Source: Spirochaetia bacterium UBA6919 (GTDB taxonomy: Bacteria; Spirochaetota; UBA6919). Taken from it: a stretch of 64,000 nucleotides of DNA. Under the pieces are notes generated by a model. It ran no database searches and was not told where the DNA came from. It saw only the letters and a list, made by a program, of their open reading frames with translations. Positions within the stretch are counted from its first letter, which is position 1. Each line of letters opens with the position of its first letter. The translations under genes were made by a program, and so were the position numbers. Where the stretch lies: positions 70,097 to 134,096 of the forward strand of contig DKAT01000070.1 in the NCBI GenBank assembly GCA_002450905.1, given 5' to 3'. Of the stretch, positions 4,096 through 20,789 are shown in pieces.

Positions 4096-4139
4096 CCCAA
4101 ATCATTTATTTTGAGTTTGTCTCGTAGGAGTGTACATAT

Positions 4140-4820
4140 ATGAACGACTTTTTTAAAGGATTTACCCAGGAAAATCCAGTCTATTCACTATTCTTAGGCC
4201 TGTGCCCTGCATTGGCTGTGACTAATATATCCATCAATGGTCTGGCTATGGGTGCAGCAACGACTTTTGTGCTTGTTGGATCCAATGTAGTGGTTTCTTT
4301 GGTACGAAATGTCATACCCGCTAAGATCCGAATTCCCAGTTACATCCTGATTATAGCGTCGTTTGTAACGGTAGTCAAACTTCTGATGAATGCTTATTTT
4401 ATTGATTTGTATGAAACTATGGGGGTATTTATATCGCTCATCGTGGTGAATTGTATAATCCTTGGACGAGCTGAGGGATTTGCAGGGAAGAATGGCGTAG
4501 TCAGATCATTTTTAGACGGGCTTGGTATGGGTCTTGGATTTACTGTAGCGATTACTGTACTCTCTGTTGTCCGGGAAATCCTTGGAGAGGGTAAAATGAC
4601 CTTTGCCCTTAATTTCGGTGGGGATATCATTGGTTCTGTGATCCAGTTCAGTGATTTTCTGAAGTCGATTGGACTGGAACAAAATGGAAATTATGCAAAT
4701 CTACTGGTCTTCATATTACCAGCAGGGGGTTTTTTCGCTATTGGACTCATCATTGGGGGATTCAATCGCCTTAAAAATGCCCTTCCAAAACCAGTTGAAG
4801 ACGAGGAGGAAGCATTATGA
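4140..4820 (+). CDS. rnfE: Rnf complex subunit E
   Basis: 226 aa. LGLCPALAVT motif and NCIILGRAEGFA motif are typical of RnfE/NqrD. Its stop overlaps the rnfA start by 4 nt. Confidence 0.85.
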   Translation: MNDFFKGFTQENPVYSLFLGLCPALAVTNISINGLAMGAATTFVLVGSNVVVSLVRNVIPAKIRIPSYILIIASFVTVVKLLMNAYFIDLYETMGVFISLIVVNCIILGRAEGFAGKNGVVRSFLDGLGMGLGFTVAITVLSVVREILGEGKMTFALNFGGDIIGSVIQFSDFLKSIGLEQNGNYANLLVFILPAGGFFAIGLIIGGFNRLKNALPKPVEDEEEAL

Positions 4821-8213: not shown

Positions 8214-8350
8214 TTGTTTATTTATTTCGTCAGGGTCTCAAGATTTTTAATTTACCCTGTCGACTTTGTATGAACAATAGTTACTATCCTTGTGAGGCAC
8301 TAATATCCATGACCAGTCAAGACACTGAGTAACGAGAAGACTTACTAGCA

Positions 8351-8440
8351 TGTCATGGTGAGGCTCTCGAACCATGTGATAAACAAGACCCTTCGAGAAC
8401 CTCAGGGTGACGGAGGTTGAGTCTCAGGATGACAGGGATT
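8351..8440. repeat. nested-palindrome repeat element, copy A
   Basis: gtcatggtgaggctctcgaaccatg...cccttcgagaacctcagggtgac, i.e. roughly 20-nt inverted arms around a short loop, followed by a ctcaggatgacag submodule. Same family as the copies at 16242, 18349, 18884, 19618 and 20005. Confidence 0.6.
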
Positions 8441-8496
8441 ATAGCTTAAAGTAACAGGGGTTGTGGCTCAGAGTGTTTTATTTAAGGAGGCTACCA

Positions 8497-9162
8497 ATGG
8501 CGATTATTTTAGAAGGGGTGGATCACAGTCCGGTAATGTGGGGTAAGATAGGCAAACACCTTGTCCAGAGGACTAAACTCGGTAAGATGTTCATTAAAAT
8601 TAAGGTGACACCAGCAAATCCGAAAACTCCAATCCAACAGGAGAAGAGGAGTGCTTTGACTGTGGGGGTTCTAAGATGGAAGAACTTTGAGAAACTCTTT
8701 AATAAGGATTATTGGGATCTTATGGCTGTGGATCATCGGTTTAGAGATGGATATAGGGCATTCTTATCCTCGTTTCTCGTAACCTATAGGATGAAGTTAT
8801 CAGAATTAGGAGATCACACCCAAGCTCTGGAATATGTTTCGAATACATCAAATCCCATTACGTATCAGGAGTCCCCGAAGAAAATTAGGATGGAAGAGAG
8901 AGATCGACGACTCATCAAGGCGATTTATACTTATCGGAAAACGAAAAGTTTTATGAGACAACTGGGACGAAGTTTAAAATATCTGGATACTCATCAGTGG
9001 TTGAATGTCATGCGATATGGGATTCTTCCGGATTCGGGGAAAGTGATTGATGATGTGTGGTACGACATGGGGATTATCCCGCCCTATGAACCGATTCCCA
9101 AGGGAAATTTTGGGACAGGGAAATTCGGGAGAGGGGTTTTTGGGGGAAAGAGGGTAATCTAA
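8497..9162 (+). CDS. hypothetical protein with Gly-rich C-terminus
   Basis: ORF with a strong AAGGAGG RBS 7 nt before the ATG at 8497. The ORF track's 8461 start lies inside the repeat. No recognisable domain. C-terminal GNFGTGKFGRGVFGGK. Confidence 0.5.
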   Translation: MAIILEGVDHSPVMWGKIGKHLVQRTKLGKMFIKIKVTPANPKTPIQQEKRSALTVGVLRWKNFEKLFNKDYWDLMAVDHRFRDGYRAFLSSFLVTYRMKLSELGDHTQALEYVSNTSNPITYQESPKKIRMEERDRRLIKAIYTYRKTKSFMRQLGRSLKYLDTHQWLNVMRYGILPDSGKVIDDVWYDMGIIPPYEPIPKGNFGTGKFGRGVFGGKRVI

Positions 9163-9691
9163 TATTCAATTTTACATTTTGGTAATGCATTTTTTAATTC
9201 TTCTACCTGTTCTTTAGATACTTTTGTACCCAATAGTTCAAGTACTTTTAAATTCCTGAGATCTTTTAAGGGTCTTAGGTTGTATACAGGTGTCCATGCT
9301 AGGGTAAGATATATTAGGTTTCTGAAGTCTTTTAAGGGTGTCAGGTCAGATATTTGTATACCATCACAAGACCAAGTCGCTGTAAGTTCCTGAGGTCTTT
9401 AATTGGAGTGAGATCTGATATATTTGAATAATTCAGATATAATTTTTTTAGTGAAGTGAGAGTTGATAAAGGTTGAAAATCTATGATTGAATTTTTATTT
9501 TTCAATATACCAATGAGAACGAGTTCCTTGATCGTTTTGAGTTGGTCTATGGTATAGTGTTTGCCTTGTTCTTTTAGCCATTTTTGGGTGTCTTCTAAGG
9601 TGTATTGCTTGGAATGAGAGATGTTTATGGTGATCAGAACTACAATGCAGGCTGTTACGAAATAGGTTATTATTTTAAAAGAGTTTTTCAT
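9159..9691 (-). pseudogene. leucine-rich-repeat lipoprotein-like gene, frameshifted
   Basis: N-terminal signal peptide and LRR units (LYLNYSNISDLTPIKDLRNLQRL). The reading frame breaks near 9360 but LRR units continue in the -1 frame (DLTPLKDFRNLIYLTL...LGTKVSKEQVEELKKALPKCKIEY) to a stop at 9159. Confidence 0.55.
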
Positions 9692-9737
9692 ATCTTTGTC
9701 CTCTATTTGATTGGAATATAATATAGAATTATCTTGA

Positions 9738-9807
9738 ATGTCAAGGAAAATATTTTTGTCATAGGTGGTGATTTCGGGTTGGAGGGTCGAGAATCTTTAT
9801 AGGGGTT
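9738..9807 (-). promoter_or_regulatory. ~70-bp conserved cassette-upstream module R1, ending in a TTGACA -35
   Basis: One of 4 near-identical direct repeats (consensus gtcaagaaaaatatttttatcctgagtggtgatttcggg..gacgagaatctttatgggg). In the gene (minus) orientation it ends in TTGACA, followed 17 nt later by TTATAT and an AGAGGA RBS for the LRR gene. Confidence 0.5.
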
Positions 9808-9823
9808 TTGTGATTTCGATGAA

Positions 9824-10039
9824 TTATTTTAACTGATTGAACTCTTCTGAAGTAATACCCATTTGTTTGATGATCTCATAGTATAATGGGGGTTCTATGT
9901 TTGTGGAAGGATGAATAGGAATTGTTGTTGCTCTGCCATCCTTGTGAATCCATCTTTGATGAGATCCCTTCTGGCGTGATATGGAGAATCCCAGTTTCTC
10001 TGCAACCCTTTGAAATGTTTTGGCATTGTCACCTGGCAT
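9824..10039 (-). CDS. hicA: HicA-family mRNA interferase toxin
   Basis: 71 aa. The segment LGFSISRQKGSHQRWIHKDGRATTIPIHP matches the YcfA/HicA fold. Overlaps the upstream hicB by 11 nt. Confidence 0.75.
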   Translation of the reverse strand: MPGDNAKTFQRVAEKLGFSISRQKGSHQRWIHKDGRATTIPIHPSTNIEPPLYYEIIKQMGITSEEFNQLK

Positions 10040-10241
10040 GGATCGATAGTTCTACATCCTCAGGAAGTTCCAGATGTTTTTCAGCATATTCTTCTGCTAT
10101 CATAGAAAACACACATTCCAATTCCTTTAAAACTTCGTCTCTTGTGGGCATAATGGCATGGCATCCTGGAATTGCGGGTATATAAGCTCCCCATGAATTA
10201 TCTTTCTGTTGATATAATACAATTTTATAATTACCGATCAT
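10029..10241 (-). CDS. hicB: HicB-family antitoxin (UPF0150)
   Basis: 70 aa. YxxxxxxxxDGxWxAxxPxxPGC pattern (YQQKDNSWGAYIPAIPGCHA) typical of the HicB N-domain. Sits upstream of hicA. Confidence 0.75.
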   Translation of the reverse strand: MIGNYKIVLYQQKDNSWGAYIPAIPGCHAIMPTRDEVLKELECVFSMIAEEYAEKHLELPEDVELSIHAR

Positions 10242-10271
10242 GGTTTAATGTTAACTAAAATTATTTGCTGT

Positions 10272-10340
10272 GTCAAGAAAAATATTTTTATCCTGAGTGG
10301 TGATTTCGGGTTGGGTTGACGAGAATCTTTATGGGGTTGG
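10272..10340 (-). promoter_or_regulatory. cassette-upstream module R2
   Basis: Repeat copy 2. In minus orientation it ends in TTGACA, then 17 nt, then TAACAT only 6 nt before the hicB ATG, which would give a leaderless or near-leaderless transcript. Confidence 0.5.
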
Positions 10341-10351
10341 TAAATTATTTA

Positions 10352-10555
10352 TTATCGATTTTCTGTGTTGATGGCAATTAAGATTTGTTTTACAACTTTT
10401 GGATGGAGAATTTTTCCACTGTGAAAGGGAATGATAATCTTCTTATCGTCTCTTTCATAGATTCGATGGCTTCCTCTGGTTCTTAGTAATTGAAATCCTG
10501 CTGTTAGTAGAAGAGATTCACCTTCCTTTGCGGTGAGACGAGATTGTTTAGACAA
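10352..10555 (-). CDS. hicA: HicA-family toxin (second copy)
   Basis: 67 aa, RTRGSHRIYERDDKKIIIPFHSGKILHPK. Confidence 0.7.
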   Translation of the reverse strand: MSKQSRLTAKEGESLLLTAGFQLLRTRGSHRIYERDDKKIIIPFHSGKILHPKVVKQILIAINTENR

Positions 10556-10558
10556 TTT

Positions 10559-10774
10559 TTAAACCTCAAGACTTGTTGTGAGAATCTCCTTACTGCATAC
10601 CAGTCTTTTTTCTTCATCTGTCAGGGTTTCCATATAGAGAGTGACTGCTTCTTTGATATTTGCCATAACCTCTTCTATCGTATCACCCTGGGTTTGACAT
10701 CCTTCTAATTCTGGGGAATAGGCGTAGTAGCCAAATTCATCTTTTTCAATAACAATCGATACTTTATAGGACAT
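10559..10774 (-). CDS. hicB: HicB-family antitoxin (second copy)
   Basis: 71 aa, FGYYAYSPELEGCQTQGDTIEEVMANIKEA (UPF0150 pattern). Lies 3 nt upstream of hicA. Confidence 0.7.
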   Translation of the reverse strand: MSYKVSIVIEKDEFGYYAYSPELEGCQTQGDTIEEVMANIKEAVTLYMETLTDEEKRLVCSKEILTTSLEV

Positions 10775-10833
10775 TTATATTATTCCTTGTAATACTTATT
10801 TATCCTCAATATTACATAATTTTCTGTAGATTT

Positions 10834-10895
10834 TCAAGAAAAATATTTTTATCCTGAGTGATGATTTCGGATACGGGTGACGAAAATCTTAGCAG
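10834..10895 (-). promoter_or_regulatory. cassette-upstream module R3
   Basis: Repeat copy 3. In minus orientation: TTGAAA, 17-nt spacer, TAATAT, 34-nt leader with an AAGGA RBS 9 nt before the hicB-2 ATG. Confidence 0.55.
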
Positions 10896-10925
10896 GAAGT
10901 ATTGTTATTAAAAGGATTTTATATA

Positions 10926-12653
10926 TTATTGAGTTAGAAAGCCTTTCAGAAAGCTGGTTAAACCATTTCGTATGCCTCTGACGTTGTATCCCCCTTCCTG
11001 TACAACAAGGATAGGTCTTTTTAATGTGTTCAGCTGTGAAGCAATCTCTTCATATATCCCAGGGCTTAATAGGAAAAGTCCTGTGGGATCACCCTTTAAA
11101 ATATCGAATCCAAGGGAAAGCACTATGACATCTGGATTGTAATTCTTAATAATAGAAATAACCTTTCCAAAGGTCTTTAGATATTTCATTTCATCTGTTT
11201 TTGGAGCTAGAGGGAAATTATAATTATGATGTAAGCCTTCTGCTTCACCTGTCTCAGATTCATAACCACTGAAATAAGGATAGGAATAATCAGGGTGCCC
11301 ATGAATGGATATGGTGAGGACATCACTCCTGTGATAGAAGATATCTTGAGTTCCATTTCCGTGATGGTAGTCTATATCAATTATCACAACACGACCTTCT
11401 AAGCTGAGATAATGGGCTGCAATGGCAGCATTATTAAAATAACAGAAACCCCCATAAAATCTCCTTCCAGCGTGATGACCTGGCGGACGACATACGGCAT
11501 AGGTTAATTTTTTTCCAGATAATATTTCATCAGCACAGGTTAGGACAGCGTTTACTGCAGAACGAGCCGCTTTGTATGCATTGGGATAAAGTGGAGTCCC
11601 TGAATCTAGACAATAATACCCTGCCTGAACAGGTAATAATTTGGGATGATTATCAGGTCTACGGATAGGAAAGGTGTCTGGATAGATGGGTCGTTTTTCT
11701 TTTAGTGTAGTACAAACTGTTCTAAGATAATGTACAAATCTTTTTTCATGGACTGCTAAAATCCATTTCTCTTCATATTCTCTGGGACTTACGATAGATA
11801 TACCTCCTACTGAATCAATTACTTCCCGTATAGTATCTACCCGAACCGGCTTTTCAAAATATCCTCTTTCCTTGATATGATGAATTTCATGTTTAGCAGT
11901 GAAAACACACACCATGCTTGAAATCGATTGTGACTTTGATAATTTTATTTGTTTACTTGAAATGGACTTCACATATCGAAAGGGGTGGAATGGGATGGGG
12001 TCTTCCTGAAATGATTCAATGACGTGCTGGGTATACTCAGGAGTAACTGATTTTGCAAACCGTGTTTTGAATATAAGTTGAATGGTATTCTTAGCATCAT
12101 CTGCACTAAGGGTATTGGATATTCCCAAACCATCGTATAGGAGATAGGCAGTGGATGGAGGGTTACCTGTTGGTGTGGAATAGGCTGGATTATTGATGAT
12201 ACGCACCCCATGTTGTTCATAGAACTGGATTCGTAGTTTAGCTAATTTTAATTCCTCTGGATTAGGTGTTAGTTCTGGTGTATCGGGTTGTACTTCCAGA
12301 TATATACCCTTAACAGACAGGCTCTTGCAGTACTCACTGATCGATTCATAAAGGGCTGATCCAACACCACGACCCTTTAAACCCTCTCGTGTAGCAATAA
12401 AATCAAGAAAACATACATTCTCTTGAGGATAGTAGATAAGAAGAGCAAATCCATCCACTCTACTCATGGCTCCTTCAGCAACAAAAAGAATAGAGCAATA
12501 TTGGTTTGTTATTGGATCAATAATGAGTGATGGAATTTTATCAGAATATCCTTCCAGATATGGAAAATTATATTTAAAAATCTCTTGTATTTGTTTCATT
12601 CTATCTTTTGAGAGAAGAGTTCCAGTATCCCTCAGGATTCGTATTCTAATCAT
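10926..12653 (-). CDS. GNAT acetyltransferase / histone-deacetylase-family (arginase-fold) fusion protein
   Basis: 575 aa. The N-terminal part has a GNAT acetyl-CoA-binding motif (REGLKGRGVGSALYE). The C-terminal part has HDAC-class signatures (HHAGRRFYGGFCYFNN, IIDIDYHHGNGTQDIFY, ISIHG). GGAG RBS 6 nt upstream of the ATG. Confidence 0.75.
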   Translation of the reverse strand: MIRIRILRDTGTLLSKDRMKQIQEIFKYNFPYLEGYSDKIPSLIIDPITNQYCSILFVAEGAMSRVDGFALLIYYPQENVCFLDFIATREGLKGRGVGSALYESISEYCKSLSVKGIYLEVQPDTPELTPNPEELKLAKLRIQFYEQHGVRIINNPAYSTPTGNPPSTAYLLYDGLGISNTLSADDAKNTIQLIFKTRFAKSVTPEYTQHVIESFQEDPIPFHPFRYVKSISSKQIKLSKSQSISSMVCVFTAKHEIHHIKERGYFEKPVRVDTIREVIDSVGGISIVSPREYEEKWILAVHEKRFVHYLRTVCTTLKEKRPIYPDTFPIRRPDNHPKLLPVQAGYYCLDSGTPLYPNAYKAARSAVNAVLTCADEILSGKKLTYAVCRPPGHHAGRRFYGGFCYFNNAAIAAHYLSLEGRVVIIDIDYHHGNGTQDIFYHRSDVLTISIHGHPDYSYPYFSGYESETGEAEGLHHNYNFPLAPKTDEMKYLKTFGKVISIIKNYNPDVIVLSLGFDILKGDPTGLFLLSPGIYEEIASQLNTLKRPILVVQEGGYNVRGIRNGLTSFLKGFLTQ

Positions 12654-12697
12654 ATAGGCTCCATTTTGTTGGAAAATAAAACATTATTATATTGAAT

Positions 12698-12767
12698 GTC
12701 AAGAAAAATATTTTTATCCGGGGTGGTGATTTCGGATCGGGGTTTCGAGAATCTTGAGGGGGTTTGG
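12698..12767 (-). promoter_or_regulatory. cassette-upstream module R4
   Basis: Repeat copy 4. Its 3' end abuts the stop of orf75. Its 5' end carries TTGACA with a weak TTATTT/TATTTT -10, about 40 nt before the GNAT-HDAC ATG. Confidence 0.45.
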
Positions 12768-12775
12768 GAAATGTT

Positions 12776-13003
12776 TTAATCTGTATTAAAATAATTTAGT
12801 TGTTCCTGAGATATTTCTTTCCACGCTGACCTTGGAACTCCATATTCAGTTTCTGCTTGTTCCAATGTGATTTCCAAGGTATCTTGCAAGTGGTCAGCAA
12901 TACTTATTCCACTCTTTTCAGGATATACAAATAAATAATATCCGACACCTTCTTCTTGTTTAAGGATAAGTGTTAATTTAACTTCTGCAATAAGTGGCTT
13001 CAT
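12776..13003 (-). CDS. hypothetical small protein
   Basis: 75-aa acidic ORF between typA and the repeat array. No recognisable domain. Confidence 0.4.
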   Translation of the reverse strand: MKPLIAEVKLTLILKQEEGVGYYLFVYPEKSGISIADHLQDTLEITLEQAETEYGVPRSAWKEISQEQLNYFNTD

Positions 13004-13081
13004 ACAATCTCAGAGGTTCAATAATCTCATTGGCGTTTTCTGATATCATTTTTAAAGAAAAGTTATTATTTATCTCTTTAT

Positions 13082-14902
13082 CTATTCTTTCTTTGACTGG
13101 CGTTTACGATCCGTTTCCTTGAGAAATTTTTTACGTAACCGGATATTTTGTGGGGTGATTTCCACATATTCATCGTCCTGGATATACTCTAATGCCTTTT
13201 CAAGAGTCATTTTAAGGGGTGGTACAAGACGTATTGCCTCATCAGATCCTGATGCACGGACGTTTGTTAATTTCTTTTCCTTTATAGGATTTACCGTTAA
13301 GTCTGAACCCTTGTTGTGTTCCCCGATGATCATTCCCTCATATACTTCAGTAGCCGGATCAATGAAGAGTGGTCCACGCTCCTGGAGATTCCATAGAGAA
13401 TAGGCAGTGGCTACACCACCCTCTGCGGATATAAGGGATCCTACACTTCTCTTATCTATTTTGCCTTTGTAAGGAGCATAGTGATCAAATGAGTGATACA
13501 TAGTGCCTTCACCACGTGTTAATATGATGAATGTTGATCTGAATCCAAGAATACCCCGTGTTGGGATTAAAAATTCCATTATGGTATTCCCTTTATCAGA
13601 GGACATACTCTTTAATTCTGCTTTACGAGGGGATAAGGCTTCAATAACTTTACCTGATATTTCATCTGGAACCGTAATAACAACCTGTTCAACGGGTTCA
13701 TGATTTTTTCCATCGATTTCCTGTAAAATGACTTTTGGCTGTGAGACTTGCAATTCAAATCCTTCACGTCGCATATTTTCTATCAGAATAGCTAAGTGCA
13801 TTTCTCCTCGTCCGTATACCTTGAATACATCAGCATTTTCAACTGTTTCCACGTTAAGACCTACGTTGGTTTCAAGCTCACGAAAGAGTCTTTGCCGGAT
13901 ATGTCGACTGGTAACAAAATTTCCCTCACGACCAGCAAAGGGGGAATTATTTACCATAAAATCCATAGCAAGGGCGGGTGGATCTACTTTTATTGCTGGA
14001 AGAACTTCAGCAGATTCATTTGTAGATATCGTTTCTCCCACATAGACATAAGGTAGTCCTGCTATAGCTACAATATCACCTGCAATGACTTCATCAACCT
14101 CTCGTCGTTCCATACCATGAAATGTAAAGACATTTGTAATTTTACCAGTTCGTTTATGACCTTCTAGATCAAATATAAAAACATTTTCCCCAGATTTCAC
14201 CTTTCCTTCATATATTCTACCGATAGCTATGCGTCCTTTAAAGTTATCATAGGTTAATGTAGCGGGTTGCATTCTGAAATCCTTTTCTGTATCAGAGATT
14301 GATATGGGGACATGCTCGATAATAAAGTCCAGTAGGGGAATAATATCCTTTTTCTCGTCGTTCAGATCTTTATATGCAATTCCTTCTCTCGCAATGGCAT
14401 AGATATACGGGAAATCTAATTGCTCATCTGTGGCACCCAGTTTATCCATCAGCTCAAAGATTTGGTCTACAACAACCGCTGGTTTTGCCTGTGGACGATC
14501 CATTTTATTTAATACAACAAGAATTGGCAAGCCCAAAGCAATGGATTTTGATAACACAAACTTCGTCTGGGGCATGGGACCTTCATAAGCATCGACAACG
14601 AGGATGACTGCATCAACCATTCTTAAAATACGCTCTACTTCCGATCCAAAATCAGCGTGACCTGGGGTATCGACAATATTAATTTTTGTGTTATTATAGG
14701 TGATGGCGGCATTTTTAGCGTAAATTGTAATACCACGCTCTTTTTCCTGATCATCACTGTCCATCATACGGACTTCTAATTCCTTGTGTTCTGAAAAAAC
14801 TTTACCAGCCTTCAAAAGGGCATCAACGAGGGTGGTTTTCCCGTGGTCAACGTGGGCTATGATAGCTATATTTCGGATTTCCTGTTTCATATCAACTCTC
14901 AA
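13082..14902 (-). CDS. typA: translational GTPase TypA/BipA
   Basis: 606 aa. G-domain motifs AHVDHGKTT, DTPGH, NKMD. Domain order matches the EF-G-like TypA. The true start may be the second Met (MKQEIRNIAII) at about 14890. Confidence 0.9.
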   Translation of the reverse strand: MRVDMKQEIRNIAIIAHVDHGKTTLVDALLKAGKVFSEHKELEVRMMDSDDQEKERGITIYAKNAAITYNNTKINIVDTPGHADFGSEVERILRMVDAVILVVDAYEGPMPQTKFVLSKSIALGLPILVVLNKMDRPQAKPAVVVDQIFELMDKLGATDEQLDFPYIYAIAREGIAYKDLNDEKKDIIPLLDFIIEHVPISISDTEKDFRMQPATLTYDNFKGRIAIGRIYEGKVKSGENVFIFDLEGHKRTGKITNVFTFHGMERREVDEVIAGDIVAIAGLPYVYVGETISTNESAEVLPAIKVDPPALAMDFMVNNSPFAGREGNFVTSRHIRQRLFRELETNVGLNVETVENADVFKVYGRGEMHLAILIENMRREGFELQVSQPKVILQEIDGKNHEPVEQVVITVPDEISGKVIEALSPRKAELKSMSSDKGNTIMEFLIPTRGILGFRSTFIILTRGEGTMYHSFDHYAPYKGKIDKRSVGSLISAEGGVATAYSLWNLQERGPLFIDPATEVYEGMIIGEHNKGSDLTVNPIKEKKLTNVRASGSDEAIRLVPPLKMTLEKALEYIQDDEYVEITPQNIRLRKKFLKETDRKRQSKKE

Positions 14903-15080
14903 GTGAATATATATTTATTTGATTATATCTTTTATAAATATTCAAATATCAATTCATAATTATTTTATATTAAATGGGAGGGAAATATAATGTTTTTTTT
15001 TAGATAGGGGAAAATAATTTTAATAAATCGATTTTATGGGAATATTTATACGTCATTGAATGTATTGGCGGAACTATTTT

Positions 15081-15539
15081 TTAAGCACTTTTATCTGGAT
15101 TTTCTGGTACCATATAAGGATTCCAGGCGATCTCCCAGGGATGTCCATCCAGATCTGAGAAATATCCAGAATAACCACCCCAATCAGTATCCATAGGCTG
15201 TCTTGTAATTATCCCACCTGAATTTTCTGCCTGCTTGAGAAGATTATCCACTTCAATTTTACTTGAGACAACCTGAGCCAGGGTTATTCCGCTATATCCT
15301 ACGTTATCTATTAAATTAGCATCGATACTCAGAAGATTTCTTGGATATAATGCCAGATTGGAACCTATATTCAATTGGAACAGTGCAAAATCTCCTCCAC
15401 TGAGATCAGATAGTGACAATCCAAGGACATCAGAATAAAACCGGATAGCCTTCTTAAGATCACTTACACCCAGAGTAACAATATTAATCACCCTGAAATC
15501 CTTTATCAATATAGAATGATTGGGAAAAATCCTTTTCAT
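15081..15539 (-). CDS. VOC-family (glyoxalase/bleomycin-resistance fold) protein
   Basis: 152 aa. VINIVTLGVSDLKKAIRFYSDVLGL matches a glyoxalase-like beta-alpha-beta-beta-beta module. The start codon is uncertain; the ORF overlaps the upstream ORF by about 55 nt. Confidence 0.6.
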   Translation of the reverse strand: MKRIFPNHSILIKDFRVINIVTLGVSDLKKAIRFYSDVLGLSLSDLSGGDFALFQLNIGSNLALYPRNLLSIDANLIDNVGYSGITLAQVVSSKIEVDNLLKQAENSGGIITRQPMDTDWGGYSGYFSDLDGHPWEIAWNPYMVPENPDKSA

Positions 15540-16113
15540 CTCGGAGGGAGAATACCACGTATTTATGGGCTATAAATTTGGCAAAGGTATAGACCACAAG
15601 ATCATAGTGAACAAGGGAGGAGTAGGGGGGAGATGAGCTCAATCTATCATTTATCTTTAAATATATTCTGCTGATATGATGGATTTTTTTGGGGGAAAGG
15701 AGCATACCATTGGAATATATTTTTAATCTGTTTTGGGAGCGTTCAGGCTTATTTATATATAAAACTGGGATATAGACATTGTTATCGGATCCATATTTCT
15801 TTTGACGGATAAAAAAATCTCTCATCATTAATATGGATTCATTAAAATTATTCAATTGCACTTTCTTATTATCTTTCATATAATAAGACAGGATATCTTT
15901 CTTCCATTGGATGAAACCATAATAATTTCTAAAGATGGATACAAAAAAACCCGGATCCTTTAAATAATTGGTATTTTGGGCAGAATTATTTTGACTTATA
16001 TTAAAATTACTTAGAATGATAAATATACTGAAAATGACGAAATATTTTTTCATCTCCCCCCCAGAGATACTTATCTTTCTCGTCATGTCAGAAAAAAAAA
16101 TTAGAAAAAACAA
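15484..16113 (-). CDS. hypothetical secreted protein
   Basis: 209-aa ORF. The likely real start is the internal MKKYFVIFSIFIILSNF at about 16053, which is signal-peptide-like. No domain recognised. Confidence 0.4.
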   Translation of the reverse strand: MFFLIFFSDMTRKISISGGEMKKYFVIFSIFIILSNFNISQNNSAQNTNYLKDPGFFVSIFRNYYGFIQWKKDILSYYMKDNKKVQLNNFNESILMMRDFFIRQKKYGSDNNVYIPVLYINKPERSQNRLKIYSNGMLLSPKKIHHISRIYLKINDRLSSSPPYSSLVHYDLVVYTFAKFIAHKYVVFSLRDEKDFSQSFYIDKGFQGD

Positions 16114-16242
16114 TGATTTATGGTAATATTATTCTAATTTCTTGTTATGAAAGAATATTTTATATAATTTATTTAATGGAATGACTAAGTTTTTTAAATT
16201 GATCTATACTGATAATTTTTGAAATCTGAAATCCTTTGAAAC

Positions 16243-17408
16243 ATGGTTCGAGAGCCTCACCATGACAGTTTTGATATTAATGCAACGATTAACGGGGAGG
16301 TGGTTGAAATTAGTGTTGAGGATACTGGGATTGGTATTGCTGGAGATAAATTGGATGTTATATTTCAATCATTTCGCCAGGAAGATTCTGGAATAGTCAG
16401 GACTTTTGGAGGAACGGGTCTTGGATTAACTATTAGTAAAACCCTTATAGAACTTCATGGAGGTACAATCGCTGTTCATTCCACTAAAGGACTGGGTTCT
16501 CAATTTAATTTTACCACACCCAAAGCGGATATTGCCCATGAATCGGTCATCATTGACCAGCCCATAGCTATGATAACAAATAATCTATCCTTAGAAAGTT
16601 CTCTGGAAGGATCAAATATCCAATCTATTCAAGGGAAACGGGGAAGGATTCTTGCTGTGGATGATGATCCTGTAATTCTCCATGTTCTGGTAAATTATCT
16701 TACTTAGAGAAATATTCCGTACAAACGGCGAATAATGGGCAGATTGCACTGGATATGATTAAAAATCAGTCCTTTGACATGGTGTTCCTAGATATTATGA
16801 TGCCAATAATGAGTGGGTATGAGGTTTATAAACGCATACGAGAAAAATATTCTCCTGTGGAATTGCCAATTATATTACTAACTGCACGAAATCAGATATC
16901 AGATCTTATAAAGGGACTTGAGATAGGTGCTAATGATTATTTAACAAAGCCCTTTAGTCGGGGTGAGTTTATCGCACGAATGAAAACTCATTTGAGTATT
17001 TCCTATTATTATAAACAAATCATAGAATTAAACAGGGAATTAAACCAAAATATCAAGGTGAGAAGAAGTGTTACCACAAAAATTCATTCAGGTAAGGTGC
17101 AGGGGATACTGGATATTTATCTGGAATAATTAAATAATATTGTAAAACACTCATCAGCAAAGAATGTTGATATACGGGTTACTTATGAGAATGATATTTT
17201 CTCCTTATCAGTAAAGGATGATGGAATTGGTTTTAATACTGAATCTTTTGTCAAAAAGAATAATTCTTATGGTATGAATATTATTCGTGAATTAGTACAG
17301 TAAATGGATAGTGAATATCATTATAATTCCTCTATTAATCAAGGAACTGAATTTACTATCTCCGTGAAAGATTGTCCATTACCCCCTTCTAATCTTCATT
17401 TTATTTAA
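16243..17408 (+). pseudogene. decayed paralog of the C-terminal half of the 7TMR-DISM hybrid histidine kinase
   Basis: Three successive frames encode an HATPase_c fragment, a receiver fragment and a second HATPase fragment. These align with residues about 560-1027 of the kinase at 39387-42470, for example EVVEISVEDTGIGIAGDKLDVIFQSFRQEDSG versus EMVEISVKDTGIGISEEKLDLIFESFQQGDSG. There are two frameshifts, an internal deletion and an in-frame stop. The 5' end coincides with a repeat arm at 16242-16268. Confidence 0.75.
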
Positions 17409-17533
17409 ATTAGCTTCTATTCATTGTTTCATAAATTATTAAAAAAAAATTAGAAATTTTCACTCCATGTAAACTTTCTTGACAGACAATTTTTTTTATT
17501 GTTGTAAATTTCTGATGCTAACAGTATAAATCT

Positions 17534-18199
17534 ATGAATAAATTAGTGCCCATAAAATTATCTATTATCGATGACAGCGATAGTTACAGGAATTATTTAA
17601 AATCACTTATCCAGGATGATTCCCGTATTCACTTATATGGTGAATATAATTCGCCTATTGCATTTATAGCTCAGTTAAATAGCCCGTTTCAACCCGATGT
17701 TTGTCTTGTGGATCTTGTTATGCCGGAGATGTCGGGGTTGGATTGTGCTCAGATCATTAAAACAAAGTGCCCTAAAATTCATGTTATCATTGTCACCAGT
17801 TTTCCTACAAAGGAATCCATTGAAATTGCCAAGATGTTAGGGGCTGGATATATTCAAAAGGGCACTATAGGAGAGAATTTTATGAAACATATCATCACCA
17901 ATACTCAAATCAAAGATGTGTTCTTTCTTTCTGTCAGTAAAGAATATGAAGAAAAGCACAAATATTTTATTGACTTCATTCATAAAGTGGGAGCCATTCA
18001 AAAAAACGTATCTCTCCTTTCTGAAACACAAAGAAAAGTCCTTCAAATGCGTAAGGAAAATAAATCTGTTGAAGAAATTGCTGAAATATTAAATACTTCT
18101 ACAAATACTGTAAAAACTCATATATTTCGTGCTATGACAAAACTGGATATACCTAATATTCTCGATTATATCCAATTAGATGATAATAATAATCCATAA
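17534..18199 (+). CDS. two-component response regulator (REC + LuxR/sigma-70 region-4-type HTH)
   Basis: 221 aa. Receiver aspartate pocket (IIDDSD...VDLVMPEMSG...IVTS). C-terminal HTH LSETQRKVLQMRKENKSVEEIAEILNTSTNTVKTHIFRAMTKL. Confidence 0.75.
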   Translation: MNKLVPIKLSIIDDSDSYRNYLKSLIQDDSRIHLYGEYNSPIAFIAQLNSPFQPDVCLVDLVMPEMSGLDCAQIIKTKCPKIHVIIVTSFPTKESIEIAKMLGAGYIQKGTIGENFMKHIITNTQIKDVFFLSVSKEYEEKHKYFIDFIHKVGAIQKNVSLLSETQRKVLQMRKENKSVEEIAEILNTSTNTVKTHIFRAMTKLDIPNILDYIQLDDNNNP

Positions 18200-18348
18200 A
18201 TATCTGACTGGGAAGGGAACACAACGAATTATCATTGATAATCTCCTTTAATTTATTAACATGCAGTTAACTTTCATCCTGCCCTCTTCATGATGGAGAG
18301 GGAGTTTCAGGGTGATAGAAGTGGGTAAGTCTTAGAGTGACACAGGAT

Positions 18349-18422
18349 TGTCATGGTGAGGTTCTCGAACCATGTTTGTACAACGCTTGTGTGTGTCCCC
18401 CTTCGAGAGCCTCAAGGTGACA
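18349..18422. repeat. nested-palindrome repeat element, copy C
   Basis: attgtcatggtgaggttctcgaaccatg...cccttcgagagcctcaaggtgacaat. The outer 7-bp inverted repeat is also complementary. Confidence 0.6.
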
Positions 18423-18569
18423 ATGGAGTAGCTCTGGGTGTGACGGAGGGAGAAATCAAGCCCTTCGACAGGGAAGGTATTCAATGCCGTGAAGAAAGAT
18501 ATTCAAATAAATGTTCTCCAAATAACGAATATTGATTATAATTATCATAACGTTATTGAATAAAGGGGT

Positions 18570-18710
18570 TTTCTTATGAAAGATTTAAGATTTAAACAGG
18601 AGTTGATGGATGAATTTAATGATTTATCAGAACAACAAATAAAAGAAGTTTTGGACTATGTTTACTTTGTCAAAGCAAGATTGACACTAGATCCTTCTCA
18701 GATGTATTTC
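18570..18710 (+). CDS. small antitoxin-like ORF (possible TA remnant)
   Basis: 46 aa, MKDLRFKQELMDEFNDLSEQQIKEVLDYVYFVKARL. It resembles the small antitoxins that pair with PIN or RelE toxins. An in-frame stop is followed by 33 more codons, and no toxin gene follows. It is below the ORF-track size cutoff. Confidence 0.3.
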
Positions 18711-18883
18711 TAGACATCCCAGTGGCAGAAGATGGAACAGGACGTCAATCAGGATAAATTATCGAATCAGATTACAGGAGATGAGATATTATGAGGGTTG
18801 TTGCCAATCACGATGATGTGTTAAAAAATCCGTGATGGGTAGAATTGTCGTCCTTCCCCTGCTCCTGGACAGCCGTGTGCTTG

Positions 18884-18975
18884 TCGCCCTTCGAGAATCT
18901 CAGGGTGAGGAGGGGGAAAATCCTGAATCAAGTTCAGGATGACAGAGAGGGCTGAAGACTCGCCCTACGGAGGAT
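18884..18975. repeat. repeat element copy D (right arm plus ctcaggatgacag / ggctgaag..gcc.tacgga submodules)
   Basis: cccttcgagaatctcagggtgagg...ttcaggatgacagagagggctgaagactcgccctacgga. Shares submodules with copies A and F. Confidence 0.5.
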
Positions 18976-19098
18976 TATGGTTTGGAGGGAAACCCGGATG
19001 GGGTTTAAGGTTGGTTTATTTGAAATAGTTTGTAAATTGTTCATGAATATGTTTAATTATATGTATATCCGTTAAGAATTATCCAACAGGAGGACGAA

Positions 19099-19299
19099 AT
19101 GTCTCAGATCCATGAAATCCAGAAGGCTGTAGAATCTCTATCCGATCAGGATTACAAGGAATTCAGGCAATGGTTTTATGATAAAGAAAATAATCGGTGG
19201 GAAGAGCAAATTAAAAGAGACTCTGAATCAGGGGTTCTCGATTTTTTAATAAAAGAAGTCCGGGAGGAAAAGAAACTGGGGAATCTGAAGGACTTATGA
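19099..19299 (+). CDS. putative antitoxin of a RelE/ParE-type TA pair
   Basis: 66-aa acidic ORF whose stop overlaps the toxin start by 4 nt (ATGA). AGGAGG RBS upstream. Confidence 0.55.
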   Translation: MSQIHEIQKAVESLSDQDYKEFRQWFYDKENNRWEEQIKRDSESGVLDFLIKEVREEKKLGNLKDL

Positions 19300-19559
19300 G
19301 GCACTTCACATCCCGACGATTCTGGAAATGCTTTAATAATCTTCCTGAACATGTTCAGGAATTGTCAAACAGGAAGTTCAATTTATTGAAGAAGAATCCA
19401 AAACATCCTTCCTTACATTTCAAGAAAATAGGATCACTGTGGTCCGTCAGGGTGGATGATCATTACAGGGCATTAGCGGTTGAAGATGAGGAGGATATGA
19501 TCTGGGTTTGGATAGGACATCATGATGAATACGAAAGATTACTGGCTGCTAGTCGGTGA
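19296..19559 (+). CDS. RelE/ParE-superfamily toxin
   Basis: 87 aa. HFKKIGSLWSVRVDDHYRALAVEDEEDMIWVWIGHHDEY is the typical RelE/StbE-family C-terminal pattern. Translationally coupled to the upstream small ORF. Confidence 0.7.
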   Translation: MRHFTSRRFWKCFNNLPEHVQELSNRKFNLLKKNPKHPSLHFKKIGSLWSVRVDDHYRALAVEDEEDMIWVWIGHHDEYERLLAASR

Positions 19560-19617
19560 TTATGGAATCATCCTTTGAGTGGATCAGGTAGGGGTTTGTT
19601 ATGGAGAGGTTACAAAC

Positions 19618-19685
19618 TGTCATGGTGAGGCTCTCGAATCCATGACTGGGTGTTGTCGCCCTTCGAGAGCCTCAGGGTGACGGGG
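19618..19685. repeat. nested-palindrome repeat element, copy E
   Basis: tgtcatggtgaggctctcgaatccatg...cccttcgagagcctcagggtgacgg, immediately upstream of the GIY-YIG gene. Confidence 0.6.
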
Positions 19686-19706
19686 GCGGGCATAAAGGAT
19701 TTTAGG

Positions 19707-19976
19707 ATGAAAACATATTCTGTTTATATTCTCCGGTGCAACGATGAAAGCTATTATACCGGGGTGACGAATGATATTGAATTGCGATTAGAAGAACATC
19801 ATCATGGAGTTGATAATAAATGTTATACCTATCCCCGACATCCTGTTCAGTTGGTGTTTTATGAGGAGTTTGGCGATATCAATGATGCGATTGGTCGGGA
19901 GAAGCAGATTAAGAAGTGGTCGAGGGCGAAGAAAGAGGCTTTGTTTAGGGGTATTATGATGGGTTGGTTCGGTTGA
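19707..19976 (+). CDS. GIY-YIG domain protein (UPF0213/YhbQ-like)
   Basis: 89 aa from the ATG at 19707 (AAAGGA RBS). YSVYILRC...YYTGVTNDIELRLEEHH...REKQIKKWSRAKK. The 5' part of the longer ORF-track frame is just repeat sequence. Confidence 0.75.
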   Translation: MKTYSVYILRCNDESYYTGVTNDIELRLEEHHHGVDNKCYTYPRHPVQLVFYEEFGDINDAIGREKQIKKWSRAKKEALFRGIMMGWFG

Positions 19977-20004
19977 GTCAGAGGTATAGTCCACAAGACG
20001 GTAG

Positions 20005-20095
20005 TCATCCTTCGAGAGCCTCAGGATGACAAGGGGAATTCAGAGTGGCAGTGAGGTGGCAAGGCTGAAGGCTTGCCATACGGAACAATATGATA
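20005..20095. repeat. repeat element copy F (collapsed hairpin form)
   Basis: gtcatccttcgagagcctcaggatgac (7-bp stem around the ttcgagagcctca core), then ggctgaaggcttgccatacgga, a submodule shared with copy D. Confidence 0.5.
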
Positions 20096-20211
20096 TGCAA
20101 ATTTTAATATTGGGTTGTGATTTTCTTATAAGTTTCTCCTGTCTTGGGTGATTTTAAAGAAAGTTTGGTGCTGTTGTTAATAATGTTTTTTTAAAATAAA
20201 TTGTTTGGAGG

Positions 20212-20789
20212 GTGCTTGATGCCTTTGTATTTTTAATTTGGAATGATAAATATCAACGGCGTTCAGGGTTTGCTCCTTTAGCTCAATGTGCTAATGATGT
20301 TTTATTATTGAGCAGGATATTTGAAAAATACTCCAAGGTGGATAAGAAGAATATTTTTGAGAATTATAATCTCACCTATGATGAATTTATTAGTCGTTTT
20401 AAGAAGTTTGTTGAGGTGGTGAAGAAAAAAAGAATTATTCTGTGATTATTACTTACAGCGGTCATGGAGATGAGGGGGGATCTCTGGTGTTTGTGGATGG
20501 GAAGCAGTATGTAGAGTATCTTGCATTTCTTGCAGAGTTGCACCCCAATCAGAGGAAACATGCTCATGAGAGGCTTAATCAACAGCCGAAGATCCTTCCA
20601 GTTCAAGAGAGAGTTGGTTTTAATGACCGGAATAATAATTTTATTCTGATTCAAAAATATATCCGGGCTAATAATATTGAGTTGAGCGCATTTGGTGGGA
20701 TCATGATGCCTGTTGGGGCTTTTTCAAGAATGTTCAGTATTTTAATATGTCTTCGATTCCCGATAATACGAAACGAGATCTCACATTGA
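20212..20789 (+). pseudogene. caspase-family (peptidase C14) gene remnant, frameshifted
   Basis: Two consecutive frames encode the caspase N-terminal half (IWNDKYQRRSGFAPLAQCANDVLLL...KKKRIIL / IITYSGHGDEGGSLVFVDGK). The frame changes at an A7 run near 20440. The catalytic Cys box is absent. Confidence 0.55.

Follow-up and report, generated by a model that had tools for sequence, protein, structure and literature searches.

Within about 12 kb of a 64,000-nt stretch of contig DKAT01000070.1 from Spirochaetia bacterium UBA6919 (the whole stretch analyzed, referred to here as the window), a palindromic sequence recurs among small genes. This raises the question of what kind of element the repeat is, and with which gene, if any, it belongs.

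Hairpin units in the window

With up to two mismatches allowed, TGAGGCTCTCGAA occurred nine times in the window, all within 8359 to 20023; the mean in the shuffled window was 1.0, and nine occurrences were reached in 0 of 100 shuffles. An independent repeat search of the window recovered identical arms. A covariance model, R1, built on 140 units and used for an unfiltered search of the 64-kb window, returned exactly nine strong matches, confined to 8349–20033 and scoring 31–49 bits (E = 2e-7 to 7e-13); there was one marginal match at 18914–18946 (−) (13.9 bits), and nothing above 11 bits elsewhere in the 64 kb. The basic unit of this repeat family is a hairpin of ~27 nt, GTCA-YSS / T-GAG-GYT-CTC-GAA / SSR-TGAC, with a conserved 13-nt loop. 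Its broader form, (T)GTCA-YSS-T-GAG-NNN-CTC-GAA-SSR-TGAC, is orientation-specific; the GTCA box is invariant or nearly so and is preceded by T in ~70% of units. The units and the genes discussed with them are as follows.

8352–8378, (+): U1, GTCATGG-TGAGGCTCTCGAA-CCATGTG, left half of convergent pair A (R1 8349–8381, 44.3 bits)
8385–8411, (−): U2, GTCACCC-TGAGGTTCTCGAA-GGGTCTT, right half of pair A (R1 8382–8414, 41 bits)
16240–16266, (−): U3, single unit at the 5' end of a truncated histidine-kinase ORF (R1 16237–16269, 43.5 bits)
16243–17129, (+): hybrid histidine-kinase/receiver pseudogene (kinase homolog alignment and Pfam)
18350–18376, (+): U4, left half of convergent pair D (R1 18347–18379, 44 bits)
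18395–18421, (−): U5, right half of pair D (R1 18392–18424, 39.3 bits)
18883–18909, (−): U6, CTCA start and TGAGATTCTCGAA loop, slightly decayed (R1 18880–18912, 35.9 bits)
19619–20030, (+): 412-bp module, unit(+)–GIY-YIG gene–unit(−), a layout common to 25 homolog loci
19619–19646, (+): U7, left end of the GIY-YIG module, in the orientation of the gene (R1 19616–19649, 31.5 bits)
19655–19681, (−): U8, forming convergent pair F with U7 (R1 19652–19684, 43.9 bits)
19707–19976, (+): small stand-alone GIY-YIG nuclease gene, 89 aa (Pfam PF01541, E = 5.9e-17)
20004–20030, (−): U9, GTCATCC-TGAGGCTCTCGAA-GGATGAC, right end of the GIY-YIG module, opposite to the gene (R1 20001–20033, 49.4 bits, the best match)

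Folding, proposed for RNA in the first-pass annotation of this DNA, gave hairpins for U1, U7 and U9 as single-stranded DNA. U1 formed the stem plus an inner GAG/CTC stem; U7, whose loop carries one inserted nucleotide, reached −6.7 kcal/mol (z −3.2); and U9 reached −7.3 kcal/mol (z −3.9), with equal stability seen in 0 of 200 shuffles. U2 was also recovered as repeat-search family D2, with a half-unit next to it at 8419–8437.

The annotation had described a real, structured, repeated and non-coding element at six places, and all six coordinates are right, since R1 matches fall there. Its three "complete", nested elements of ~70 nt exist as loci, each of which resolves into a convergent pair of ~27-nt units, and its three "single arms" are each one single unit. 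The ~20-bp imperfect stem drawn between distant arms is replaced by the short hairpin described above. The submodule ctcaggatgacag proved to be the 5' half of a minus-strand unit. The other submodule, ggctgaag...tacgga, occurs only twice, and is therefore not common to copies A, D and F: as a tail module at 18950–18971, where U6 is followed by the marginal unit and then by this module (as an alignment of the right ends also shows), and 3' of U9 at 20063–20084.

The units are intergenic. They lie 23–179 nt 5' of five ORFs, with pair F ending 23 nt before the GIY-YIG start codon, and they face both orientations relative to neighboring genes. Copies without a gene are either single units or convergent doublets of ~65–75 nt; they are found within ~12 kb of the GIY-YIG gene and bracket small toxin-antitoxin cassettes, in agreement with the clustering around such genes noted earlier.

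Stem covariation and distribution in reference genomes

The unit is widely distributed: further copies, for which a search had been suggested, were found in more than 114 reference-genome stretches from Bacteroidota, Patescibacteria, Nitrospinota, Neomarinimicrobiota and Chlorobi. Covariation confirmed the hairpin. For the three stem bases left free by the search pattern, 109 of 132 distinct reference-genome units had the perfect 3' complement, in five stem types (TGC/GCA 41, CCC/GGG 29, TCC/GGA 27, TGG/CCA 10 and CGC/GCG 2). Counts at the individual pairs were UA 88/CG 40, CG 71/GC 61 and CG 119/GC 14, with 3–6 of 140 unpaired. None of 500 shuffles equaled the real alignment in covariation score or in the percentage of paired cells, and slid controls collapsed. 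Because covariation in the stem preserves base pairs and not codons, the unit is not a fragment of a conserved protein-coding gene. The GIY-YIG gene was present in only 3 of the 114 genome stretches found by unit, so most copies lie far from any nuclease gene.

Association of the units with GIY-YIG genes

The reverse relationship was examined in 80 independent metagenome loci with GIY-YIG homologs, picked by protein similarity alone. Strict units occurred at 3.34 per kb within 0–150 nt of the gene, and at 1.14, 0.35, 0.11, 0.09 and 0.02 per kb in successive distance classes out to 2–4 kb, an enrichment of ~150-fold within 150 nt. The tie to this GIY-YIG clade is oriented as well as tight: upstream units were 38 (+) versus 15 (−), and downstream units 40 (−) versus 10 (+). 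Under a loose definition, a unit lay no more than 300 nt from the gene in 70 of 80 loci, and the gene was flanked on both sides in 26 of 73 loci (strict) or 53 of 73 (loose). Unit arrays adjoin the gene in three loci (L173, L188 and L193). Module length in 25 homolog loci had a median of 413 bp (range 360–690), compared with 412 bp in the window. Around these 25 gene-carrying modules no target-site duplications beyond chance 3-mers were found, and the only conserved base outside them was a T at position −1. No sign was found that loop class and protein sequence covary (p = 0.13 and 0.46). The GIY-YIG gene, listed in the first-pass annotation as one more neighbor of the repeats, is thus the gene with which the repeat family travels.

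The GIY-YIG protein and its relatives

The 89-aa window protein matches Pfam GIY-YIG over residues 4–76 and has no other domain; the homologs listed are mostly 95–110 aa. Its catalytic core is intact, with Y7, Y17 and E65 invariant in 32 aligned family members. After G82 the tail is out of frame relative to homologs, and among the best 150 representative matches listed the alignment ends at residues 73–86. The +2 frame restores the consensus GxYDxLxxLS, and 1 nt has probably been lost in a G-run. With this frameshifted C-terminal tail, the window's own gene may be inactive.

For SsnA and three of its homologs, cleavage of ssDNA has been demonstrated beside the hairpin repeats belonging to each (NTS in the case of SsnA); loop identity is dispensable, SsnA does not bind RNA, and the authors remarked on an IS-like layout (Chenal et al., Nat Commun 2025, PMC11893778). 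Homology to cd10448/SsnA was judged by proxy, using three proteins flanked by exact NTS repeats: an exact scan for the NTS core identified three loci (L242, L300 and L208) with a small GIY-YIG gene arranged as NTS(+)–gene–NTS(−). Of the three, the L242 protein scored best against the window protein, with 48% identity (E = 2e-14, 62–65 bits), and the motif EKxIKKW is common to window-type and NTS-flanked proteins. The window residues Y7, Y17 and E65 are the equivalents of Y6, Y17 and E64, which were mutated in SsnA (PMC11893778). Both systems have a single-domain GIY-YIG protein of ~90–100 aa with no separate DNA-binding domain, and an oriented hairpin repeat starting (T/C)GTCAY, as the GTCA-box hairpin of the window does. 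In both, the repeat is (+) on the 5' side and (−) on the 3' side of the gene in a module of ~400 bp, the window having the orientation of L242, L300 and L208; extra copies are clustered nearby and dispersed in the genome, and phylogenetic spread is wide.

The two systems differ in the hairpin, which in the window type has a stem of 4–7 bp including the GTCA box and a conserved 13–14-nt loop (TGAG...YCGAA), whereas in NTS a stem of 8–9 bp is closed by a loop of 3 nt. The published SRM search sequence, HGTCWYN(0-2)YYVSBRHN(0-5)WNVSBRGN(0-2)RNCYNB, gave no match in the window, none near the 80 homolog genes and one in 807 kb of unit-bearing loci, although it does detect the repeats of L242, L300 and L208. 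Window-type proteins also form a distinct clade, one residue shorter between GIY and YIG than the NTS-flanked proteins. Comparable similarity was found to UPF0213 (B. subtilis YazA, E. coli YhbQ), which shares the size and YILxCxDxSxYTG spacing of the window protein and includes its closest solved structures, 1zg2 and 1ywl (E = 9.6e-11 and 6.3e-9). The window-type clade scored 49–72 bits with UPF0213 (YazA, BH0048) versus 36–65 bits with NTS-flanked proteins; since UPF0213 scores equally high, membership of the window protein in the Ssn clade does not follow from sequence alone. UPF0213 genes reside in housekeeping operons; for YazA this is trmNF-yazA-rsmI, where no units were found, and YazA lacks EKxIKKW. 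Taking protein, repeat and layout together, we regard the window system as related to, though divergent from, the Ssn nuclease/hairpin-repeat systems, and not as a generic MITE.

Proposed function and alternative explanations

In our preferred reading, to which we assign a probability of roughly 0.6, the hairpins are the cognate sites of the small GIY-YIG nuclease encoded at 19707–19976 and form with it a module of ~412 bp, of which the other copies would be derivatives that lack the gene. By analogy with SsnA/NTS, the nuclease would bind the hairpin only in single-stranded DNA, as arises in replication, repair or incoming transforming or conjugative DNA, and would nick the DNA a short way (a few nucleotides) 5' of the GTCA box. 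With the flanking units in inverted orientation, each of the two cuts is expected on a different strand, immediately beyond the module. As a result, recombination could be controlled or stimulated locally, in keeping with a stretch that is cassette-like and rich in pseudogenes. We infer ssDNA binding, ssDNA cleavage, the cut position and the recombination effect from this analogy, and cleavage is put forward conditionally because the SRM sequence misses the units and the protein clade is equally near UPF0213.

The same layout could instead represent a selfish IS-like or homing-type mobile element, with the doublets as MITE-like non-autonomous derivatives and any effect on host recombination as a by-product. 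This explanation, which we hold to be possible though rather improbable, overlaps with the cognate-site reading and differs from it in the driver of spread. The compact form, terminal inverted repeats, conserved size (median 413 bp, n = 25), presence of the unit in at least five phyla, arrays beside the gene and IS-like layout (PMC11893778) are all in its favor, as are doublets 84–85% identical over 61–64 nt in Bacteroidota, though for the window's BipA the highest identity to any other is 77%. The 25 modules, however, lack target-site duplications, with only the T at −1 conserved. Characterized GIY-YIG enzymes hydrolyze DNA, and strand joining is not known among them. The unit has similar flanks in Epilithonimonas caeni (L021) and E. 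mollis (L032), which is suggestive of stable inheritance, and viral contigs hold very few copies (5 stretches).

The repeats were also compared with other small elements. A REP/MITE-like nature had been proposed, and the likeness to REP elements holds: as in REP/BIME with RAYT (TnpA-REP), short extragenic palindromes are found alone, as convergent pairs and clustered, and flank the gene whose product, as we propose for the window, recognizes the hairpins. The partner there is a Y1 HUH enzyme and the 5' box GTAG, whereas here the flanked gene encodes a GIY-YIG nuclease, the box is GTCA and no transposase was found among the window ORFs scanned; a REP/RAYT assignment was rejected. The MITE assignment was also set aside; inverted ends are present, but the target-site duplications (25 modules) and transposase gene (window ORFs scanned) usual for such elements are not. 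IS200/IS605 elements ("peel and paste" on ssDNA, subterminal hairpins) resemble the module in very small size, absence of target-site duplication and hairpin recognition on ssDNA, the last presumed here; their ends are not inverted and they use a strand-transferring HUH transposase, in contrast to the inverted ends and an enzyme class known only to cleave.

Two further explanations were considered. The hairpins might act in RNA, as REP-like mRNA stabilizers, terminators or 5'-UTR regulators beside an incidental GIY-YIG neighbor. Their intergenic position 5' of five ORFs would suit such a role, and covariation does not distinguish RNA from DNA hairpins. However, the units matched no Rfam family at gathering or relaxed thresholds, none had a T-run or lay at a terminator-like or promoter-like site, and both orientations relative to neighboring genes were seen. 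The oriented ~150-fold enrichment at one nuclease family would be unexpected for a generic RNA element, and SsnA does not bind RNA (PMC11893778); we consider an RNA role improbable. Least likely is an integron-like cassette array with the hairpins as attC-type recombination sites. Cassettes of ~0.4–0.7 kb, some of them toxin-antitoxin, are parted by imperfect palindromes, and attC sites too act as folded single strands. Against this, no integrase or recombinase was found among the region's ORFs or the 20 other ORFs of at least 180 aa scanned (three left out), the unit consensus lacks attC core sites (RYYYAAC / GTTRRRY), and the units are tied to the GIY-YIG gene and not to IntI.

A more speculative reading, which we hold to be rather improbable, is that the gene with its two inverted GTCA-hairpins constitutes an autonomous mobile module of ~413 bp, in which the Ssn principle would be represented by a second lineage of independent origin. 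It would then be among the smallest gene-carrying mobile elements, spreading via hairpin-directed ssDNA nicking followed by recombinational copying, and would have crossed phyla (Bacteroidota, Patescibacteria, Nitrospinota, Neomarinimicrobiota, Chlorobi and this uncultivated lineage). The gene-less doublets that it seeded would in turn provide toxin-antitoxin and defence cassettes with portable boundaries for recombination, and the lineage would be one that escapes the published SRM motif.

The histidine-kinase pseudogene

The kinase pseudogene lies outside the repeat/nuclease system, and its 5' breakpoint abuts U3. Alignment of full-length kinase homologs starts at nt 16255, and upstream of this nothing aligned to them in any frame; the truncation point therefore falls within the unit at 16240–16266 or at its border, to an accuracy of ~12 nt. 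An exact coincidence of one repeat arm with this boundary had been reported; U3 is indeed at the 5' end of the pseudogene, and by its position it may have had a causal role in the truncation. The pseudogene, whose truncated ORF spans 16243–16707, lacks HisKA and the N-box and changes frame near 16700; the HATPase_c match (Pfam) begins at profile position 24.

Repeat Unit and Its Copies in the Window

The 13-mer TGAGGCTCTCGAA, with up to two mismatches allowed, matched nine times in the window, all within 8359–20023; shuffled controls gave approximately one match on average, and 0 of 100 shuffles reached nine. The identical arms were also recovered by a repeat search as direct and inverted families. 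A covariance model of the unit (R1), built from 140 units and run over the whole window without filters, returned exactly nine matches of 31–49 bits, with a further marginal match at 18914–18946 and no match above 11 bits in the remaining 52 kb.

Matches to the unit model R1 in the window
8349–8381, +, U1, doublet A
8382–8414, −, U2, doublet A
16237–16269, −, U3, single unit
18347–18379, +, U4, doublet D
18392–18424, −, U5, doublet D
18880–18912, −, U6, single unit
19616–19649, +, U7, doublet F
19652–19684, −, U8, doublet F
20001–20033, −, U9, right end of the GIY-YIG module

The first-pass annotation had described a nested palindrome at six locations. All six locations are correct and the repeat is real, but both "arms" are the same unit of ~27 nt rather than distant arms of one element; its three "complete" elements are therefore pairs of facing units, and its three "single arms" are single units. 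Read on the strand that begins with GTCA, the unit has the form GTCA-YSS-TGAGGYTCTCGAA-SSR-TGAC, the left arms being GTCATGG...CCATG(AC) and the right arms, when reverse-complemented, GTCACCC...GGG(C)GAC or GTCATCC...GGATGAC. Folded as single-stranded DNA, it forms an outer stem, an inner GAG/CTC stem, and a GYT triloop (−2.8 to −7.3 kcal/mol), and the doublets can alternatively fold as one long hairpin (−11.6 to −20.3 kcal/mol).

Neither of the added submodules proposed earlier holds in its original form, "ctcaggatgacag" being the 5′ half of the unit on the opposite strand and the shared ggctgaag...tacgga sequence occurring only twice, each time 30–40 nt 3′ of a (−) unit. The latter module (GGCTGAAGNCTYGCCNTACGGA, at 18950–18971 and 20063–20084) has a small covarying hairpin of its own (AGGGC/GCCCT versus GGCAAG/CTTGCC) and was absent from all 335 fetched loci in which it was sought. 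Two further stretches, at 8283–8313 (...TGAGGCACT...) and 18460–18478 (CCCTTCGACAGGGAAGG), are probably decayed units of other loop classes, which suggests that more than one unit subtype once resided in the region.

Occurrence in Other Genomes and Stem Covariation

The unit is far from unique to the window locus. The pattern GTCAYSSTGAGGYTCTCGAA, in which the three 5′ stem bases were left free and the 3′ side was unconstrained, was scanned over GTDB at one genome per species and matched at least 114 genome stretches, with ~17 matches expected by chance (own calculation, uniform composition). The genome of the window itself was not among the stretches listed. Judged by the record titles of the first 80 loci among the matches listed, the taxa were mostly Bacteroidota (Chryseobacterium, Epilithonimonas, Mucilaginibacter, Cyclobacteriaceae, and Chitinophagaceae), together with Patescibacteria (Falkowbacteria, Kerfeldbacteria, Saccharibacteria, and Dojkabacteria), Nitrospinota, Neomarinimicrobiota, Prosthecochloris, and a few Proteobacteria. 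Doublets 84–85% identical to 8351–8411 over 61–64 nt were found in Cyclobacteriaceae and Sphingobacteriaceae genomes, whereas no other protein is more than 77% identical to the BipA of the window. Searching the doublet against plasmids by blastn gave chance matches only, and a full-text literature search with the unit as a sequence string returned only unrelated primers.

In 109 of the 132 distinct matches, the triplet following the loop was the exact complement of the free stem bases, giving five stem types (TGC/GCA, 41; CCC/GGG, 29; TCC/GGA, 27; TGG/CCA, 10; CGC/GCG, 2); the few matches without a closing stem, in GC-rich, coding-like contexts, are probably chance matches. Across the 140 units, stem pair 1 was UA in 88 and CG in 40, pair 2 was CG in 71 and GC in 61, and pair 3 was CG in 119 and GC in 14, with just 3–6 units unpaired at each position. 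The observed covariation score and percentage of paired cells were attained by 0 of 500 shuffles, and the signal collapsed once the partners were slid by 1–3 columns. The selection seen in this covariation is on a nucleic-acid hairpin and not on a protein fragment. The first-pass annotation would have been refuted if the sequence were part of a conserved coding gene or had no other copies in the genome; the covarying stem and the matched genome stretches answer this test.

Tandem, BIME-like arrays of the unit with a period of ~100–150 nt were observed in four fetched loci (L173, 1333–1757; L188, 672–1270; L193, 79–1347; L115, 7666–7990). The arrays in L173, L188, and L193 directly adjoin a GIY-YIG gene, and in L188 and L193 two stem types alternate in opposite orientation; L115 was found through the unit scan and has no GIY-YIG match.

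Association with a GIY-YIG Nuclease Clade

The ORF at 19707–19976 (+) encodes a stand-alone GIY-YIG domain (Pfam E = 5.9e-17) and lies between U7(+)/U8(−) and U9(−). For the association test, 80 metagenome loci were chosen solely for encoding a homolog (45–64% identity), the gene being set on the plus strand, and a strict unit was defined as GTCA-YNN-YGAG-N4-6-YGAA with a closed 3-bp stem. The 380 kb of homolog loci contained 133 strict units compared with ~0.015 expected by chance (own calculation), and their density fell steeply with distance from the gene.

Density of strict units by distance from the homolog gene
0–150 nt, 3.34 per kb
150–300 nt, 1.14 per kb
300–600 nt, 0.35 per kb
600–1000 nt, 0.11 per kb
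1–2 kb, 0.09 per kb
2–4 kb, 0.02 per kb

Upstream units were mainly in the orientation of the gene (38 versus 15) and downstream units mainly inverted (40 versus 10). The hairpin family is oriented, and it is coupled tightly and directionally to one nuclease clade. Most of the 39 loci without a strict unit had visible variants, which either start with GTCAG or carry an extra stem-loop of 20–45 nt in the loop (GTCACTTCGAGTG...TATCGAGAAG); under a looser definition, a unit lay within 300 nt of the gene in 70 of 80 loci and on both sides in 53 of 73. Variant units flank the homolog genes of loci L131, L140, L146, L147, L149, L150, L157, L172, L182, and L187, as well as L126, L152, L165, and L199. 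Module length, taken between the outer edges of the upstream (+) and downstream (−) units, had a median of 413 bp (360–690, n = 25), and that of the window module is 412 bp. The odd C-terminal tails of many annotated homologs (FDKLRVT, FDSAQDD, and STSSG) are read-through into the downstream unit.

In the other direction, the gene was present in only 3 of the 114 genome stretches listed for the unit, each time 64–123 nt away, so most copies are dispersed and gene-less. The window-type clade (the protein clade of the window gene) is large, with 1,434 cluster representatives at E ≤ 1e-10, or 10,236 when the cutoff is relaxed to E ≤ 0.001. Loop class and protein similarity gave no co-variation signal, which is consistent with the loop changes that SsnA, the Neisseria meningitidis nuclease discussed below, reportedly tolerates. 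No NCBIfam or PADLOC family matched the GIY-YIG protein or its small neighboring ORFs. In locus L326, from an abundant Bacteroidota MAG, a close homolog (P0007) has a CRISPR array (36-nt repeat, period 66) on one side and cas2–cas1 on the other (1038–1997 and 2501–4216).

Comparison with Ssn Nucleases and UPF0213 Proteins

The first description of site-specific single-strand DNA nucleases dates from 2025 (Chenal et al., PMC11893778). SsnA is a 94-aa single-domain GIY-YIG protein whose binding to the NTS hairpin repeat (CGTCATTCCCGCGMAVGCGGGAATCYRG) requires single-stranded DNA in one orientation and which cuts a few nucleotides upstream of it; three homologs cleaved beside their own repeats, loop identity was dispensable, and loop extensions were tolerated (PMC11893778). 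Homolog genes had the Ssn-related motif (SRM) on both sides in 42% of cases, and the authors remarked on the insertion-sequence look of NTS–ssnA–NTS (PMC11893778). A strong positive association, of 81%, is reported for SRM-rich genomes. A literature search for follow-up papers on Ssn found none.

As a proxy for SsnA, the exact NTS core was scanned in viral contigs, and the resulting loci were searched with the window protein. Three of these loci (L242, L300, and L208) encode small GIY-YIG proteins in the layout NTS(+)–gene–NTS(−) spanning ~400 bp, and L242 has an additional (−) copy further upstream, as in many window-type loci. The L242 and window proteins are 48% identical (E = 2e-14) and have in common the EKxIKKW-R motif and the positions of the catalytic Tyr, Tyr, and Glu; the association of the window-type hairpin with its clade is equally tight and has the same layout. 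The hairpins differ, however: the NTS has an 8–9-bp stem and a triloop, whereas the window unit has a short covarying stem, of which the GTCA box is part, and a loop of 13–14 nt that is conserved. The published SRM search sequence, which does detect the repeats of L242, L300, and L208, had no match in the window and none at distances up to 300 nt from the 80 homolog genes; unit-bearing genome loci totaling 807 kb gave a single match.

An all-against-all protein comparison resolved three groups, namely NTS-flanked, window-type, and UPF0213 proteins (YazA, BH0048, and EF2693). Window-type proteins scored 36–65 bits against NTS-flanked and 49–72 bits against UPF0213 proteins, and the latter two scored only 15–47 bits against each other. 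The window-type protein clade is distinct. The closest solved structures to the window protein are UPF0213 proteins. YazA is encoded in a housekeeping operon that has no units. Plasmid homologs (Sphingomonas, Methylobacterium, Planktothrix, Legionella, Cupriavidus, Acidiphilium, Xanthomonas, and Sinorhizobium) showed no canonical SRM or clear GTCWY hairpin flanks and therefore provide no bridge to Ssn. The GIY-YIG gene on a Planktothrix agardhii plasmid (L119, NZ_LR882964, 3001–3285) is closer to the NTS-flanked type and has an MmeI-type restriction-modification gene on one side and DISARM drmA on the other; weak R1 matches lie around it.

The window-type clade behaves in genomes like Ssn, although sequence by itself does not assign it to that family; it was filed as working like Ssn/SRM. 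Under the present definition of the Ssn family (cd10448 plus the SRM motif), the clade falls outside on one feature and is unproven on the other. The window system is a divergent variant, with a wide distribution, of the principle of 2025 that pairs a nuclease with a hairpin; it lies outside the published motif and, by analogy, may cut single-stranded DNA.

Proposed Mechanism and Alternatives

On the model of SsnA, the nuclease would bind the extruded hairpin on single-stranded DNA and nick just 5′ of GTCA. With the flanking units inverted, the nicks at the two ends would cut opposite strands immediately beyond the module, and units and doublets that lack the gene would be targeted as well. 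Small cassettes in the window are bounded by units: doublet D, a 45-aa ORF, and U6 with its tail are followed by a ParE-like toxin–antitoxin pair and then by doublet F, the GIY-YIG gene, and U9 with the tail module of U6. The other unit-bounded cassette (18425–18880) contained no second or decayed GIY-YIG gene, and no target-site duplications were found around the modules. The main alternative is a purely selfish mobile module, which overlaps with the nuclease/site explanation.

A role of the units at the RNA level, for which a covarying hairpin could be taken, is unlikely, as they occur in either orientation relative to genes and their enrichment is specific to the nuclease gene. Moreover, no Rfam match reached the gathering threshold in the whole window, a relaxed threshold over 18200–20200 gave only two sub-threshold chance matches, and scanned promoters and terminators did not coincide with units. 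No tRNA genes were found. An integron-like array was excluded because there was no integrase among the ORFs scanned (those of the region and 20 others of at least 180 aa) and there were no attC core sites.

The published SRM definition captures NTS-like hairpins only, and the window presents a different hairpin type with a separate GIY-YIG clade. If this clade cuts single-stranded DNA at the units, it would offer new enzyme/site pairs for single-stranded DNA tools and account for an intergenic repeat that is very common in Bacteroidota and candidate-phyla genomes, as well as for the odd tails of ORFs annotated as "GIY-YIG nuclease family". It would also be a concrete candidate for the shuffler of small toxin–antitoxin cassettes and for the maker of breakpoints like that of the truncated kinase.

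Kinase Breakpoint and GIY-YIG Tail

The hybrid histidine-kinase/receiver gene at 16243–17129 is a pseudogene with two lesions, a 5′ truncation and a frame change near 16700. The HATPase_c match of ORF 16243–16707 begins at profile position 24, and full-length kinase homologs align from nt 16255 on and nowhere upstream, which places the 5′ breakpoint within or at the edge of U3 (16240–16266). A repeat arm had been reported exactly at this truncation; the coincidence stands, but at a resolution of ~12 nt only. That the unit caused the truncation is a tentative idea and seems rather unlikely; the position of U3 fits a hairpin-associated rearrangement and would equally fit a unit occupying a pre-existing junction.

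The homology of the window GIY-YIG protein ends at residues 73–86 (150 best representative matches listed), and beyond G82 the family consensus GxYDxLxxLS is matched by the +2 frame instead of the annotated one. The gene has likely lost a single G from a G-run; at this tail, an independent Logan contig is identical in sequence. This copy may be inactive, like the neighboring kinase, caspase, and antitoxin remnants. The +2 frame over 19945–20030 (GYYDGLVRLSQRYS...SHPSRASG*) would stop at a TGA within the downstream unit.

Genomic Context

The window is chromosomal and encodes Rnf, AcrB/HlyD/OEP, SecDF, MCP, seryl-tRNA synthetase, and many ankyrin-repeat proteins. Parts of it are matched at 100% identity by Logan contigs from ERR688354/5. 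The host bacterium is uncultivated, and the closest relative of its BipA (77%) is a protein from a MAG named Spirochaetota. A caspase-domain fragment, several ankyrin-repeat proteins, and a CHAT-domain protein are encoded at 20212–20789, 37316–38653, 47989–51295, and 60625–62949, along with a 2066-aa ORF at 21203–27403, a set that is unusual for a bacterium with so distant a nearest BipA relative.

A separate family of 107-nt direct repeats (9701–9807, 10233–10339, 10794–10900, and 12659–12765; 64–79% identical to the reference copy) adjoins HicB/HicA-like small ORFs around a GNAT-deacetylase gene. Three tandem copies of 66–68 nt at 9248–9414 lie partly inside a leucine-rich-repeat ORF fragment (9341–9691, minus strand).
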